A stretch of DNA of 28,249 bases, taken from assembly GCA_964613575.1 (NCBI GenBank), contig CAZTHU010000001.1, positions 1 through 28,249 on the forward strand, read 5' to 3'. Made by a program: the position numbers and the translations under genes. Shown here one piece after another: positions 4,085 through 12,190 of this stretch (position 1 is the first letter of the stretch; every line of letters starts with the position of its first letter). This DNA is from an uncultured Eubacteriales bacterium. GTDB lineage: Bacteria > Bacillota > Clostridia > CAZTHU01. The notes beneath the pieces are model-generated. The model was not told the DNA's origin, made no database searches, and saw only the letters and a list, made by a program, of their open reading frames with translations.

Positions 4085-4110
4085 GTCATTTGAAAGGAGA
4101 ATTTATTGTT

Positions 4111-6903
4111 ATGGTGTATGACTATTATAAGGAAATGAAAAGCAGAAAGGGAAATAAAAAAATTTTTGTAATAGCAGGATTAGTTTTAGCTTTTATACTT
4201 CTATCTATAGTTTCTAGCATCTATTTGGAAGTTATACAGCTAAAAGAGATAGGCGATTTTGATACGGTTTTTTGGACTAATTTTGCATATAAGGCAATTT
4301 TTGCGTCGATAGTATTTGTAATTATATTCTTAGCAATCTTTATAACCAATATACAAATCAAAAAAAATTTTGAGAGGTATTTTAAAGGGTTAGATGGTAA
4401 GTTGAGCAAAGTTTATAATATCCCAGTTGCACTTTTAATTGCATTAGTTGGAGCATTCTTTAGTAAAGAGGCATTTTTTGAAAAAGGTTTGATGTATCTT
4501 AATCGGGTAAATTTTGAAACCGTAGACCCAATTTTTGGATTAGACATAGGATACTTTCTGTTTTCTAGACCATTCCTAATGACTGTATACGAATTTTTTA
4601 GTGCGCTTATGATTTTTTTGATTATATATACCGTTGTTTACTATATCCTTCTAGGGGTAGGTTCGGTAGATAAAATTGTGCTAAAATCATTAAATCTTGA
4701 CAACTCTTCGTTGAAGCCTTTTTTTAGGCATAACTTAGTTAATATTGCGTTGTTTTTCTTTATAAGGACTTTTTCTTATAGGTTTAGAGGAGAGGGGTTG
4801 GTTTATTCAACCTTTGAAAATGTTAGAGGGGCAGGATATGTTGATGTGAATATTTGGCTAAACTTTTTCAAGGTTATACCATTTGTTCTTATGTCACTTG
4901 TTGTCATAGCATTAGTTAGTTTGTATAAAGGTAAAATAAAAAGAAGCTTAACTACAATACTTGTTTATCCTGCTATTTGGATTTTAGTATCGTTAATTGC
5001 AAGTGGAGTTCAATTTTTTATGGTTACACCAAATGTTTCAAGTTATGAAGGTCCATTTATTGGAAATAATATAGCAATGACAAAGCTAGCCTTTGGGTTG
5101 GACCAAATAAAATCTGTTGATTTTCCTGATATACAAGAACTTACGCCAGAGGTTTTAGAAAGAAATAAGCAAACTGTAGATAATATAAGGATAATAGATT
5201 ACTCATCTACCTTAGCCAATAATAGGCAGGTTCAATCACTTAGAAATTATTACACATTTAGACATGGAAGTATTGTTAATTTCCCACAGGATGGTGAAAA
5301 CATACCAGCATTTATTACAGCAAGGGAGATGGAACGTGATAATCTCCCAGATAAGACATATCTTAGTAAAAGGTTTAGGTATACACATGGTTTTGGTGTA
5401 GTAGTTAACCCGTTAAATGAGATATCAAATCAAGGGCAGGTAAGATTTATTCTTGGGGATTTAGAAGATGGTAATAAAAATTTAGAAAATCCTGCTATTT
5501 ACTATGGACTCCTTTCTGATGATTATGTTTATACTAATGCGCAAGAATTGGATGAAATTAATTATGATGGAACTGCAAGTGTAAGATATGAAGGTGATGG
5601 TGGGCTCTTGATGACACCATTAAATAGGCTTTTGTTTTCCATTTACTATGGTGATTATCAAATGCTTGTTTCTCGGCATATAAATAATCAAACTAGACTT
5701 TTATTAAATAGAGAAGTGGTTAACAGAGCAAGAATGGCACTTCCGTTTTTAAAAATTGATGATGATCCTTATATTATGATAAGTGATGAGGGGCGTCTAA
5801 AATGGGTTGTAGATGGGTATACTACATCGAATAGTTTTCCATATTCTCAAAGTGTCAGAGATTTTGGATTTGGAGAATATAACTATATAAGAAACTCAGT
5901 TAAGATATTGGTAGATGCTTATGATGGTACTGTTGAGTGTTATGTTATAGACAGGGAAGACCCTGTGATTAAGGTTTATAAAAATATATATCCACAGGTT
6001 TTTGCAGAAGGTGATCTTCCTTTGGATGTAAGAAGTTACATGAAATATCCAGAATATTTGTTTAATGTTCAAACAAGGCTTTTAAGAAGATATCATCTTG
6101 GCGAAGATGAAGTAGGAAAGTTCTTTTCAAATACAGATTTATGGGAAATATCAAAAACTTTAGGTTCTCAAACTTCTAATGTGGTCGATATAGAGCCATT
6201 TTATAATATGATAAGGCTTCCTGGTGAAATTTCAGATTCAGAAGAATTTATATTAATGAGACCTTTCTCGCCTTCTGGGGAAAGAAATAATATGGTTTCA
6301 TGGCTTGCAGCAAGAAATTCATACGAAAATTATGGAGAAATGGTGCTATTTCAGTTTTCTAGAGATAGTAATGTTTTAGGGCCACAACAAGTTGGTGTGA
6401 CTATAGATCAAGATGATGAAATCTCTTCTGCTACTACATTATGGGGGCAATCCGGTTCTAGTGTTTATAAGGGAAGCTTATTGGTTATACCTATTGAAGA
6501 GTCAATACTGTATATTCAACCTATATACGTAAGGGCGGAAACTGGTTCTTCTATTCCAGAGGTAAGAAGAATTATAGCAGGTTTCCAAAAAGATGGCCAG
6601 TTTGTTTTTGGAGCAGGTCAAATGCTTGAAACAGCATTAGAAAACATGTTTGAGAGTGCTAAAAGAGGGGAAGTTATTATTGATGATATACCTGAATCGG
6701 ATTTGGACAAAGAAATTCAAGATGAGCAAGAGCAAGAACAAGAAGTAGAACAAGAATTAGAAGATGACCACGAGCGAGAAATTGAAGAAATGATAAATGG
6801 TGATTTAGAAAATATTTTAAACCAGATTAGCAATAGGTTTGACAGTATTAAAACTGATTTAGATAGTTTAGAAAAACTTATAGAGGATCTTGATTTAAGA
6901 TAA
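4111..6903 (+). CDS. UPF0182 family membrane protein with an acidic C-terminal tail
   Basis: N-terminal TM bundle; DPIFGLDIGYFLF, YTHGFG, NYIRNSVK, GSLLVIP motifs; ATG 4111 follows SD GAAAGGAG (ORF track start 4090). Confidence 0.85.
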   Translation: MVYDYYKEMKSRKGNKKIFVIAGLVLAFILLSIVSSIYLEVIQLKEIGDFDTVFWTNFAYKAIFASIVFVIIFLAIFITNIQIKKNFERYFKGLDGKLSKVYNIPVALLIALVGAFFSKEAFFEKGLMYLNRVNFETVDPIFGLDIGYFLFSRPFLMTVYEFFSALMIFLIIYTVVYYILLGVGSVDKIVLKSLNLDNSSLKPFFRHNLVNIALFFFIRTFSYRFRGEGLVYSTFENVRGAGYVDVNIWLNFFKVIPFVLMSLVVIALVSLYKGKIKRSLTTILVYPAIWILVSLIASGVQFFMVTPNVSSYEGPFIGNNIAMTKLAFGLDQIKSVDFPDIQELTPEVLERNKQTVDNIRIIDYSSTLANNRQVQSLRNYYTFRHGSIVNFPQDGENIPAFITAREMERDNLPDKTYLSKRFRYTHGFGVVVNPLNEISNQGQVRFILGDLEDGNKNLENPAIYYGLLSDDYVYTNAQELDEINYDGTASVRYEGDGGLLMTPLNRLLFSIYYGDYQMLVSRHINNQTRLLLNREVVNRARMALPFLKIDDDPYIMISDEGRLKWVVDGYTTSNSFPYSQSVRDFGFGEYNYIRNSVKILVDAYDGTVECYVIDREDPVIKVYKNIYPQVFAEGDLPLDVRSYMKYPEYLFNVQTRLLRRYHLGEDEVGKFFSNTDLWEISKTLGSQTSNVVDIEPFYNMIRLPGEISDSEEFILMRPFSPSGERNNMVSWLAARNSYENYGEMVLFQFSRDSNVLGPQQVGVTIDQDDEISSATTLWGQSGSSVYKGSLLVIPIEESILYIQPIYVRAETGSSIPEVRRIIAGFQKDGQFVFGAGQMLETALENMFESAKRGEVIIDDIPESDLDKEIQDEQEQEQEVEQELEDDHEREIEEMINGDLENILNQISNRFDSIKTDLDSLEKLIEDLDLR

Positions 6904-7866: not shown

Positions 7867-8544
7867 ATGAAGTTTGATACAGAACATTTTAGCATGTTTT
7901 TTATAACAACATCAAATAGAGGCTATAACGACTTATCATCTGAAAACCATTGGGCGAAAAGATTTGTTGAATCTTTAGCAGCTAGAGGTATAGTTAATGA
8001 TGTTGCTGATGGTCAAGATTTTCACCCATCTGATAGTATAACAAGAGGTGAGGTTGCAATAATGGTAGGTAATGCGTTTAATCTCTTAGAATATGACTTG
8101 CCTAATTCGTTTAATGATGTTGATGATGATGCAATTTATGCCCGACATGTAGCGTCTTTGTATAAGAATAGAATCATAAGAGGAACAGGTAATGGTAGGT
8201 TTAATCCGTATGAGGAGATTAAACGTCAAGATGTTGCAATTGTATTATCAAATGCTCTTTTGCTAAAGCATAAGAATTCCTTGAGACTTCCTATCCATAC
8301 TCAACGTTATCTAGAAAATTTTGATGACGCCCAAGAAATTTCAAATTATGCTAGTCGTCATATTGCATTTTTATCAGAATTGGGTATTTTAAACGGAAAT
8401 AAGCAAGGCGACCAATTGAATGTAAATCCGCATTCATCGCTAGGTCGAGCTGAGATGGCAACACTTATATATAATAGTTTGCAATTAAAAAATATACAAT
8501 CGTTCCCAGATTGTGTTTTGACAGAAGGTGTAAATGTGAATTAA
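7867..8544 (+). CDS. SLH-domain protein with three SLH repeats; probably the C-terminal fragment of a larger surface protein
   Basis: HWAK..ITRGEVA, FNDV..IKRQDVA and ISNYA..LGRAEMA SLH motifs; no signal peptide; frame stays open back to 7768. Confidence 0.75.
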   Translation: MKFDTEHFSMFFITTSNRGYNDLSSENHWAKRFVESLAARGIVNDVADGQDFHPSDSITRGEVAIMVGNAFNLLEYDLPNSFNDVDDDAIYARHVASLYKNRIIRGTGNGRFNPYEEIKRQDVAIVLSNALLLKHKNSLRLPIHTQRYLENFDDAQEISNYASRHIAFLSELGILNGNKQGDQLNVNPHSSLGRAEMATLIYNSLQLKNIQSFPDCVLTEGVNVN

Positions 8545-8713: not shown

Positions 8714-10492
8714 TTAGCTTGCCTTACCATTAATGTCTTTAGATGCTTTAGAATTATTCCACATTTTCACAAGCTCTTCCTCGGTTAGTGTTTCTTTTTC
8801 TATAAGAGCTTTTGATATTTTTTCAAGCGCGTTTTTATTTTTTTCTAAATATTCTAAAGTCTCTTTGTATAATGTTTGCGACATCACCTTTATTTCCTCT
8901 AGTACTTTTTCACTTTTTATATCTATAACATCAAGATTTATCATACCAAAATTACTCATGCCAAATACTTTTACCATCGTGTGTAATTTTTGTGTAGCCA
9001 TTCCAATATCAGAGCTTGCACCTGTAGTAATTTTATTTTCATCGTTAAATAATATAAATTCAGCTGCTCTACCACCATAAGCAATCATTATATCATTTTT
9101 AATATCCTCTTTTGAAAGAAGATGTTCTTTTTCATTATTTATAAATGTCACTCCACCTGCACCACTTGTAGAGGCAATGATAGATACTTTAGGTACATTT
9201 TTATTTGCTAAAAATTTTGCAATAATAGCATGCCCTGCTTCATGATAGCCAACCGTTTTTACCTCTATAGGATCTCTATCTAAGTTCTTTCGTTGATATC
9301 CCTTCATGACTGCTTTATAAAAAGCCTCATCTAAATCTTCATTGTCTATAGCTTTTTTTCTTTTTACAGAGGCACTAATTGCAGCTTCATTTATTATCTT
9401 TGCAATATCGGCACCTGAACATGTTGAGGTGTATTTTGCAAGGCTTTCAAAATCGATTTCCTTGGCCAATTTTTTATTTTTCGAATAATATTCAATTATT
9501 TTTTTTCTATCATTTATATCAGGAAGTCCAATTGTTATATGTCGATCAAAACGACCTGAACGGGTAAAGGTTTCGTCTAATGCATTTAAATTATTCGTTG
9601 CGCCAATTACTAATATTCCGCTTGATTCATTAAACCCGTCCAATTCAACAAGAAATTGTTTTAATGTTTGTTCTTTTTCAGAGTTATTATCAATACCAGC
9701 CTTTTTAGCTAGTGCTTCCAATTCATCTACAAATATAACACAAGGTGCTTTTTGACGGGCATCTTTAAATAACTGTCTAACCCTAGAAGCACCAACACCT
9801 ACATACATTTCTACAAATTCTGATGCATTTACATTAAAAAATGGTACATCTGCCTCGCCAGCTATTGCTTTTGCAAATAATGTTTTTCCAGTTCCAGGTG
9901 GTCCATGAAGTATAACTCCTTTAGGAAGTTTTGCTCCAAGTTGTTGATATTTTTTAGGATTTTTCAAAAAATCGACTAAAAGAACAAGATCTGTTTTGGT
10001 TTCTTCGTGACCAGCTACGTCAGAAAATTTTACATTTGATGTTATGACTATATTTTCTTTAGTGTTTTTGTTTTTGGGCATATATCCCCTCAAAAAGAGT
10101 AATAGAATACCAATAGGTATGATTACAAATAGGATCTCAAGTAAAAACCTAATAGCATTCATGTGAAATGGTGTTGGCAATTCGGAAACCTCGACACCAT
10201 TTTCTAGCAAGAATTTTCTAAACTCTGGAAAATCTGGATCGGATACAAAGAAAACTTCTTCACTTTGCGTAGTAACTTTGAGTTTAGATTTATTCGATTT
10301 AAACTCAACCGTATCTATTTCACTATCTTTAACCTTTTCTCTAAATAAATTATATTTTAGGCTATCATCGGAAGATTCTTTTTCCATTTCATTATTACCC
10401 AAAATTCCGAAGCTATAGCTAACAAATAGAATACCGCCAACAATAGCTAAAATAAACAAAATTTGTTTTAAGATACTTTTATTTTTTTTCAT
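8714..10492 (-). CDS. ftsH: ATP-dependent zinc metalloprotease, FtsH family, divergent paralog
   Basis: Two N-terminal TMs, Walker A GPPGTGKT, Walker B VIFVDE, SRH TNN..RSGRFDR, zinc motif HEAGH; SD AGAGGAG. Confidence 0.9.
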
Positions 10493-10544
10493 AACATAAA
10501 ATCTCCTCTAAATAACTTTTCTGAGTTTCTGTTTAAAAATCTAC

Positions 10545-10853
10545 GCAATAATTCTCGTGACTATAGTAGTGAGATGAATTGCGCCACTTAATATATATGC
10601 TAGTTTTTATAACAACTAATATATAGTTGTTATGGAACTAGCAAAACCAGTAGTTTCCCTTAGCCAATGTTGGAAAAGCTTCGCAATGTGGTTGACCTTT
10701 CCTTTCCTTCAGAACTTTTACAGAGCCACGATAGTGCCAAGAACTATGGAATCATTCTTGGGTATCTACTTCTAATCCAAAGTAGTCAGTTAAGACTTAG
10801 GCTAGTCAATAAGAGCTTTTACAAGCCCGTCACTTTAGTGATGGATTATTGAC
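10545..10853. mobile_element. Non-autonomous IS200/IS605-family (IscB-type) MITE with no nuclease or transposase gene
   Basis: Two related subterminal hairpins, CTCGTGAC-TATA-GTAGTGAG (10554-10573) and CCCGTCAC-TTTA-GTGATGGA (10826-10845); + strand ends in TTGAC (10849-10853); omegaRNA-like interior. Confidence 0.8.
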
Positions 10854-10873
10854 AGAGTGTTCTAGTTTTGTTA
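10645..10873 (-). ncRNA. HEARO / IscB omegaRNA scaffold (10853 to about 10645) with a putative 5' guide from the flank (about 10873-10854)
   Basis: Minus strand reads GTCAATAA..TTATTGAC-TAGCCTAAG..ACTACTTTGGA..GATACCCAAGAATG..AGTTCTTGGCACTATC..AAGC..TCCAACATTGGCTAAGGGAA, the motif order of HEARO/omegaRNAs as I recall it; the helices are directly visible; ends approximate. Confidence 0.8.
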
Positions 10874-10930: not shown

Positions 10931-10959
10931 ATTATAACATATCAATAAGAAAAAGTCAG
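10931..10959 (-). promoter_or_regulatory. Sigma-A promoter upstream of the omegaRNA and ftsH paralog
   Basis: Minus strand CTGACT, 17 nt, TATAAT with extended -10 TG. Confidence 0.55.
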
Positions 10960-10964
10960 TATTC

Positions 10965-11022
10965 AAACAATATCAATACAATTATTTTGTATTTAATGCA
11001 GAATAATTGTATTGTATTGTTT
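10965..11022. terminator. Long AT-rich inverted repeat just downstream of the ankyrin gene; likely terminator
   Basis: AAACAATA(T)CAATACAATTATT pairs with AATAATTGTATTGTATTGTTT (21 bp, one bulge). Confidence 0.5.
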
Positions 11023-11032
11023 GTTAGCTATA

Positions 11033-12190
11033 TTAAACAGTTAAAGATAATGATTTTTGTTTAGTTTCTTGCTGTAGGTTTAAGCTTAGCTCTTTTTTAG
11101 GTAGCTTTCTTTCTTTAGTGTTAGGAGTATATTTTGCATATATGCTATTAGAGTCTACGACTTTCTCAGCCTCTTTTTCTTCTACCCTAGGTTGTACTTG
11201 ATGTTTGTTTATATAGTTTGCTAAATCTAGGTTATCTTTTAAAACAGCCAAATCGGAAGGCTTTCTTTTCCATTTGTCTAGCAGTTTTGGATTTGCTCCA
11301 TTATCTAACAAGGTATCTACAGTATCTTTATTGCATTTGTAAGCAGCTATATGAAGAGGTGTAAGGTTTTTCTTAGACTTAGCATTAACATCTGCACCAC
11401 TATTTACAAAAAGTTTTACAAGCTCAGAATCTTGCTTTAATACTGCTAGATGAAGTGGACTATATCCATTTTTTTCTTTAGTATTAAGCTTTATTTCATT
11501 TTCAACAAGCTTTTGAATTATTCTTTTCTTTTCATCTTGGTCAGGTAATAAGGTTTCCTTTTTATCAAAAACGCTAAGTGGATATTCAACCATGTCTGGA
11601 TTAGGAATAAGTTCTTTTTTATTGTCATCAACTCTTTTAATATCGGATATGTAAGCGTTTTTTACTATAACTCCCTTTACATCACCTATAAAAAGGTTTT
11701 GTATAGGTGTTTCTTTACTTCTGTTAAAAATTTTAGTTTTTGCACCTGCATTAAGAAGAGCTTGAACTGTTTCTTCTCTTTTAAATAGATTTTTTTTAGC
11801 ACTGTCTAAAAGATAACCACCAAACTCAGGATTAACATGGTCGTTAGTAGAAAAGTTAACAGTATTAGAAGATAAACTTAGACCTAAGCAAGATCTTCCT
11901 TTGTGGTCACGTGTATTTGGGTTAGCACCGTATTCCAATAAAAGACTTGTAAGTCTTGGGTTTGACGTTTTAGACGCAAAAGATATTAAAGGTACTTTAT
12001 TACCTTTTTCATCTTTTAAAGTAGCGTTTGGATTGGCATTTAGATCTAATAGCTTTTCTACATCATCTAATGTAGCGTTTGTAGCAGCAAGGTGATCTTT
12101 GTTTTGCCCGTCAGTTTTTTTGAATAATTCGACTAATTTGTTTGTTGCTGTTTTACTGTAGCTGTCTGTACATGAAAATAATTTGTACAT
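11033..12190 (-). CDS. Ankyrin-repeat protein, 385 aa
   Basis: GYSPLHLAV..GADVNAK, NLTPLHIAA..GANPK, LLLEYGANPNTRD repeats; SD GGGGG; no signal peptide. Confidence 0.9.
   Translation of the reverse strand: MYKLFSCTDSYSKTATNKLVELFKKTDGQNKDHLAATNATLDDVEKLLDLNANPNATLKDEKGNKVPLISFASKTSNPRLTSLLLEYGANPNTRDHKGRSCLGLSLSSNTVNFSTNDHVNPEFGGYLLDSAKKNLFKREETVQALLNAGAKTKIFNRSKETPIQNLFIGDVKGVIVKNAYISDIKRVDDNKKELIPNPDMVEYPLSVFDKKETLLPDQDEKKRIIQKLVENEIKLNTKEKNGYSPLHLAVLKQDSELVKLFVNSGADVNAKSKKNLTPLHIAAYKCNKDTVDTLLDNGANPKLLDKWKRKPSDLAVLKDNLDLANYINKHQVQPRVEEKEAEKVVDSNSIYAKYTPNTKERKLPKKELSLNLQQETKQKSLSLTV

Follow-up and report, generated by a model that had tools for sequence, protein, structure and literature searches.

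An orphan HEARO-type RNA on a small, probably internally deleted IscB-type element between ankyrin-repeat and ftsH genes

The stretch of DNA analysed here (28,249 nt; hereafter the window) carries on its minus strand, at 10853..10650, an RNA whose sequence and structure make it a HEARO/IscB-type omegaRNA, although it is an orphan. The element that bears it, 10537-10853, is very probably an internally deleted, non-autonomous derivative (PATE) of an IscB-type IS200/IS605 element, inserted beside TTAAA between an ankyrin-repeat gene (ank) and ftsH. The RNA is a real but fairly ordinary transposon remnant; orphan copies are common. The features of the locus are collected in Table 1.

Table 1 Features of the orphan RNA, its element and the surrounding ank-ftsH spacer.
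Feature	Position	Strand	Basis or remark
Ankyrin-repeat gene	11033..12190	minus	Pfam Ank families; upstream of element
Terminator-like inverted repeat, 20-nt arms	10974..11014	minus	90% complementary; after ankyrin gene stop
Promoter-like site CTGACT-17 nt-TATAAT with TG	10931..10959	minus	Consensus scan, 10/12 matches
Putative guide, flanking DNA 5' of scaffold (...GTAACAAAACTAGAACACTCT)	10854..10873	minus	Outside element
IscB-type omegaRNA scaffold (HEARO, RF02033)	10650..10853	minus	Rfam full model; helices covarying in 17 relatives
Near-end subterminal hairpin CCATCAC-TAAA-GTGACGG	10844-10827	minus	Within 5' part of scaffold
Filler, 63 nt, AT-rich, in place of iscB	10587..10649	minus	No IscB similarity
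Filler hairpin GCTAGTT..ATAACAACTA-TATAT-TAGTTGTTAT..AACTAGC	10641-10600	minus	MFE fold and repeat scan (I7)
Far end (LE)	10537..10586	minus	80% identity over 51 nt to L082
Far-end outer stem	10583-10578 / 10549-10544	minus	Intact
Far-end inner hairpin TCTCACTAC-TATA-GTCACGAGA	10573-10554	minus	Weakened
Candidate target-adjacent motif TTAAA (plus strand TTTAA)	10532..10536	minus	Analogy with relatives; just beyond far end
ftsH	8714..10492	minus	Pfam AAA, Peptidase_M41, FtsH_ext; downstream of element

In an Rfam covariance-model search, 10853..10650 matched RF02033 (HEARO) over the entire model (positions 1-211 of 211) with 109.4 bits, compared with a gathering score of 83, and an E-value of 5.3e-22. 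This was the sole Rfam family match across the 28-kb window. The search bears out the HEARO/omegaRNA identity that an earlier note had proposed from a reading of this DNA, and the nested minus-strand helices that it had described from 10853 are all legible. Helix GTCAATAA/TTATTGAC encloses CCATCAC-TAAA-GTGACGG and GCTT-GTAA-AAGC, and further scaffold helices are formed by GATA-CCAAGAA/TTCTTGG-TATC, GTGG/CCAC and TTGGA/TCCAA. We mapped these helices and two possible pseudoknots onto 17 aligned family members whose hosts are very different. Standard pairs occupy 83.4% of the alignment cells; shifting the 3' partners by 1-3 columns lowers this to 32-44%. Changes on both sides are seen in 35 pairs, and none of 500 shuffles reached the observed values. 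The pseudoknot UAGCC/GGCUA is well supported in the same alignment (83.5% paired). The loop-loop pseudoknot TTCC/GGAA, the one suggested by the earlier note, receives only moderate support (69% paired, with one pair changed on both sides). The 336-nt stretch has a folding energy of -87.9 kcal/mol (z -3.66), a stability that none of 100 shuffles attained. The window copy is thus like HEARO in its full-model match, helices, pseudoknot and covariation.

The 5' end of the scaffold, GTCAA, doubles as the near end (RE) of the transposon. In the relatives, the sequence upstream of GTCAA differs from one insertion site to the next, right up to the G. One element is found at four sites in the Ga0194137 contigs, and the same holds for L070/L083 compared with L067/L076/L079. 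Since the same element occurs at different sites, GTCAA is a true transposon end, and the near boundary of the window element lies exactly at its G. Published work describes the omegaRNA as bounded by the RE, with the variable flank as the guide (Meers et al., bioRxiv 10.1101/2023.03.14.532601), and the window copy is like HEARO in both respects. The near-end hairpin is intact, with a predicted energy of -3.7 kcal/mol.

The far end was defined by comparison with full-length elements (L082, L089, L071, L073 and L076). These consist of a variable flank, GTCAA and the scaffold, an ORF, and a far end in which an outer stem surrounds an inner hairpin with a TAAA loop. The far end overlaps the stop codon of the ORF in L082 and lies just downstream of the stop in the other four. 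The ORFs of L082 and L089 are IscB, with RRXRR and HNH domains in Pfam; iscB-bearing relatives, whose existence the earlier note had made a test of its reading, are thus found among the related loci. In the window, 10586-10537 aligns to the L082 sequence that overlaps the iscB stop codon (80% over 51 nt). The layout of outer stem, inner hairpin and tail, the last reading AGATTT in the window, is shared with L073, L089, L071, L076 and the Clostridia orphans. The second hairpin that had been pointed out at 10554-10573 is real; its homologue in full-length iscB elements is the hairpin at their far end. In L082, in three Clostridia orphans and in four Bacillus mini-elements the far end runs up to ...TTAAA, and the flanks diverge beyond it; other relatives end at an equal offset in ...TTTATGAA, which is the published GstIscB target-adjacent motif (TAM), TTCAT, on the opposite strand. 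By analogy, TTAAA at 10536-10532 is likely to be the TAM of the window element, and the far boundary is more likely at 10537 than at 10545. The element would then measure 317 bp and not the 309 bp first given, the boundary being about 8 nt further out. Both the far boundary and the TAM rest on analogy because no empty site was recovered; these boundaries predict an empty site in which ...AACACTCT is joined to TTAAACAGAAAC.... The description of the locus as a small IS200/IS605-type element without a nuclease stands, with both ends recognisable and the inner hairpin of the far one weakened.

Between the two ends, the iscB gene of about 1.3 kb is gone, and a 63-nt AT-rich hairpin is in its place. 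In the relatives, the IscB start codon lies 227-243 nt past the scaffold start, equivalent to about 10626-10610 here, within the filler, which consists of the hairpin followed by an (AT)n run. The element holds no protein-coding gene. Its sole ORF, of 61 aa, runs antisense inside the RNA, and the source assemblies have no gene calls within the element. The absence of iscB and tnpA reported by the earlier note was confirmed by Pfam and tblastn searches of the window. Pfam detected no nuclease or transposase domain in the 20 larger ORFs, which include every ORF of at least 181 aa. With 16 ORFs from downstream of related scaffolds as tblastn queries (several IscB-like, at least two not), the best match in the window had an E-value of 0.22, and no iscB remnant was detected by tblastn in 10493-10650. 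The window belongs to a 92.6-kb ENA metagenome contig, of which 47 kb was read (record positions 13,153-60,346). In the 19 kb of contig added in this way, the called genes have no recorded Pfam matches to HNH, RuvC or Y1 transposase, and there was no second HEARO copy; the 47 kb of genome examined contained neither a sister copy nor an iscB parent. Unlike the RNAs of L082 and L089, the RNA at 10853..10650 is therefore not placed upstream of an iscB gene.

IscB guides are about 16 nt long. On the analogy of the relatives, the putative guide of the window RNA is the flank of about 16 nt just upstream of 10853 (..AAACTAGAACACTCT). The scaffold looks usable, and a function as guide of IscB, in binding and in DNA cleavage beside the TAM, is putative for this RNA. 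No other targets of the putative guide and no other copies of the filler were found in all the sequence gathered. The guide flank (10869-10862) contains the 8-mer AAAACTAG, and the filler hairpin repeats it in its 3' arm (10607-10600); the MFE fold has the guide segment base-paired to CUGGUUUU (10650-10643), immediately 3' of the scaffold. The repeat and the pairing may be due to chance, may occlude the guide, or may be a trace of the deletion event.

To place the window copy in its family, we gathered about 110 related loci by three motif scans. The first genome scan with the 5' motif returned 60 loci, none closer than about 76%. The metagenome scan yielded relatives of the lineage, none of them from the source organism, and the viral scans yielded one iscB-bearing contig and then none in a later scan. 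L089 (IMGVR_UViG_3300038318_000152) is a full iscB element of the same lineage at the end of a viral-classed contig. In L082, the 16-nt sequence ATAGCAGGGTGGGCCA lies 8 nt upstream of the scaffold start (oriented positions 111-126) and recurs at about 1971-1986, some 290 nt downstream of the far end. Among the 56 related loci with at least 1.6 kb of downstream sequence, iscB is present in 30, remnants are present in 4, and IscB similarity is absent from 22. The rarity implied by the earlier note does not hold, given these 22 of 56 comparable loci and the gene-less PATEs already published as relatives of ISGst5, an IscB element of Geobacillus stearothermophilus, whose omegaRNAs, it is argued, have to act in trans (Meers et al., bioRxiv 10.1101/2023.03.14.532601). 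The window element resembles those PATEs in being small and gene-less and in having ends like those of the full iscB element. It differs from them in lineage and host, in its TTAAA as opposed to ATGAA (TTCAT on the opposite strand), and in being a single copy in the 47 kb read, whereas the Geobacillus elements are multi-copy with a cognate TnpA.

The closest scaffold lineage in complete genomes is that of the Bacillus mini-elements (78-82% identity over the core). Four of these (L095, L099, L111 and L113), from Bacillus cereus-group relatives and B. rhizoplanae, have one common iscB deletion junction, and L094 is probably another. Like the window element, they have lost iscB and kept both ends, with TTAAA after the far end. 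They retain the first 13 nt of iscB and have another type of far-end hairpin, whereas the window element contains the unrelated 63-nt filler. Where upstream sequence is available, for three of the four, it places each at a site of its own, and their genomes contain iscB copies as well; of the window element, in contrast, one copy is known. B. methanolicus has another orphan, L101, which differs in its 3' part.

The orphan L086 (OHAY01000230, human gut; oriented scaffold start 2857) has a full scaffold that scores 143.6 bits and an internal iscB deletion, which extends from inside or near the iscB start to near the far end. It is like the window copy in having a complete scaffold without a nuclease, but it has no far-end hairpin at all where the window element keeps a weakened one. 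Upstream, L086 has 600 nt in common with the iscB-bearing L079 and its immediate flank in common with L076, and the downstream flanks all differ. Four tRNA genes lie within about 2.4 kb downstream of it, the nearest at about 200 nt. Short derivatives in which the scaffold is reduced to its first 58 nt (93-95% identity with the window copy), and which fall below the Rfam threshold, were found in the Clostridia MAG CAZCIZ01 (L014, L016, L031, L036 and L043) and in metagenome contigs (L068, L072 and L074). At least five are thus present in the one MAG, and some have the far-end hairpin and TTAAA. Beside a truncated copy in a Clostridia MAG, the ORF of L041 was considered as a possible IscB and set aside: it has no IscB similarity and appears by eye to be of the response-regulator/BTAD type.

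Several features bear on how well the window copy is preserved. Nine iscB-linked relatives, among which the iscB of L082 and L089 is confirmed by Pfam, reach 112-156 bits with RF02033. The window copy lies just below this range, at the low edge (L082 has 112.3 bits), and its RNA may be slightly impaired or simply divergent. Apart from the score and the missing iscB, it departs from HEARO in the motif CUACGUU, which reads CUACUUU here, a U replacing a G that is present in 16 of the 17 aligned sequences. This was one of two consensus departures named by the earlier note, and it is upheld; the other, TTCCATAG, comes down to a single loop base that differs from TTCCCTAG in the closest relatives, beside the putative pseudoknot. 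In the inner hairpin of the far end, the stem carries two substitutions (CTAC versus TGAC in the relatives) and the loop is TATA in place of TAAA. Its predicted energy with DNA parameters is -1.3 kcal/mol, in a shifted register, compared with -2.7 to -7.1 kcal/mol in the relatives. The partial decay suspected earlier is thus seen in the weakened hairpin and the mutated, nearly invariant G. Because the far-end inner hairpin is weakened, mobilisation by TnpA is doubtful, and to judge from the sequence the element may no longer be able to move. Together with the mutated scaffold base, this indicates that the element is most likely a stranded, slowly decaying copy and not an actively mobile one.

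The RNA lies in a 540-bp spacer between ank and ftsH, in the same orientation as both genes, with hrcA-grpE-dnaK-dnaJ-prmA beyond on the plus strand. A promoter-like site precedes the scaffold by about 70 nt and is the likely origin of a transcript through the RNA in the direction of ftsH. The site is a consensus match, and such sites are no more numerous in the region than in shuffles. Between the element and ftsH, no promoter passed the consensus scan. Because the RNA has the orientation of ftsH, with a promoter-like site upstream and no comparable site in between, it is probably transcribed with ftsH, either as part of the leader or by read-through. This arrangement matches a reported tendency of iscB elements to be oriented like the gene upstream of them (Meers et al., bioRxiv 10.1101/2023.03.14.532601). 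The filler hairpin was also considered as an intrinsic terminator, which was unsupported: it has no U-tract and was not called by the scan.

In the nearest relative (L120/L121, 1753-4779), a 385-aa ankyrin gene lies 90 bp upstream of ftsH without such an RNA. The proteins are 66% (FtsH) and 57% (Ank, a likely orthologue) identical to those of the window. The conserved adjacency implies that the ank-ftsH pairing is old. The spacer is 450 bp longer in the window (540 versus 90 bp), of which the element explains 317 bp, and the GC content of the element is 0.37-0.40 as against 0.21-0.27 in the adjacent spacer. The longer spacer is consistent with insertion of the element. No empty site was recovered; the closest FtsH is 66% identical, and the spacers of L120/L121 and the window do not align. 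A search by FtsH in representative genomes found no related loci. The genome is of low GC with a Firmicute-type hrcA-grpE-dnaK-dnaJ-prmA block, and it has no close relative in the collections searched; its gene content and order suggest a low-GC Firmicute. Elsewhere, SLH-domain proteins are encoded at 7867-8544 of the window and at 12422-14698 of L116, and a UPF0182 protein at 4090-6903. Two ORFs at 54-773 (239 aa) and 910-1455 (181 aa) are called genes in the source assemblies and have no Pfam match.

The history that best accommodates these observations, in our judgement, would begin with the insertion of an iscB-type element next to TTAAA in a short ank-ftsH spacer, followed by loss of iscB, with the RE and RNA 5' end, the complete scaffold and a recognisable LE kept. 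By the established OMEGA model, an IscB made elsewhere and loaded with this RNA would then cut an empty ank-ftsH site, which would present the guide match and then TTAAA, and through such a cut the element would promote its own retention. That the locus is a chance resemblance, or an artefact of assembly such as a chimeric join through a repeat, and no real feature of this genome, is in our view most improbable. Two Logan contigs and one ENA contig do end inside the element (L062, L063 and L065, at 10627, 10806 and 10815), and because two assemblies break there, the interior rests on the ENA contig(s) of one sample. Against an artefact, independent assemblies of at least three samples or runs extend both flanks into the element at 99.9-100% identity, the ank-ftsH join is backed by synteny in the nearest relative, and the Rfam match spans the full model (E 5e-22) with helices that covary. 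One of the Logan contigs ends exactly where the lineage-wide 30-mer CCATCACTAAAGTGACGGGCTTGTAAAAGC would branch a k=31 graph (k being assumed), which makes a second family member in that community probable, not necessarily in the same genome.

This contig end also bears on a livelier interpretation, in which a Y1 TnpA still moves the element as an active, stand-alone guide cassette and an IscB from the same genome is loaded in trans with the element's RNA, the whole behaving as a functional non-autonomous OMEGA element. We regard this as possible, if doubtful. The complete scaffold scores above the Rfam threshold and near the iscB-linked L082, the closest lineage includes RNA-only mini-elements that have spread to several sites in iscB-bearing Bacillus genomes, PATE-borne omegaRNAs must act in trans according to Meers et al., and a second family member in the community would explain the graph branch. 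That member need not share the genome, however, and neither iscB nor tnpA nor another copy is present in the 47 kb inspected; the inner hairpin of the far end has left the register of the family, and the nearly invariant G of CUACGUU is lost. A domesticated leader that controls ftsH in cis, through stability, attenuation or processing and independently of any nuclease, is very unlikely. The shared orientation with ftsH, the only good promoter-like site upstream of the element, and the long hairpin after the scaffold would suit such a leader, but that hairpin lacks the U-tract of a terminator, the 90-bp spacer of the nearest relative does without the RNA, both transposon ends are still recognisable, and elements of this family insert behind many unrelated genes. 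The internally deleted, non-autonomous IscB-type derivative remains the reading that we favour.

The locus adds one well-delimited example to a known class, that of IscB-type guide RNAs that outlive their nuclease on small IS200/IS605 derivatives. About 40% of the scaffolds gathered from the HEARO family have no adjacent iscB. For annotation, the locus shows that a HEARO match does not imply a nuclease nearby. The element occupies what is probably the 5' leader of ftsH and may therefore affect the expression of this essential gene. It is improbable, in our estimate, that this orphan omegaRNA in the ftsH leader of a deep-branching Firmicute is functional, whether as a guide in trans for IscB or a nuclease-dead relative or as a co-opted RNA on which ftsH expression has come to depend; if it were, it would represent a step from a selfish guide RNA towards a host regulatory RNA. 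Independent deletions, at the window locus, in L086 and in the Bacillus mini-elements, have repeatedly dropped the nuclease and kept the RNA, with the ends also kept except for the far-end hairpin of L086. These repeated deletions fit a modular system in which guide RNA, nuclease and transposase are able to act in trans.
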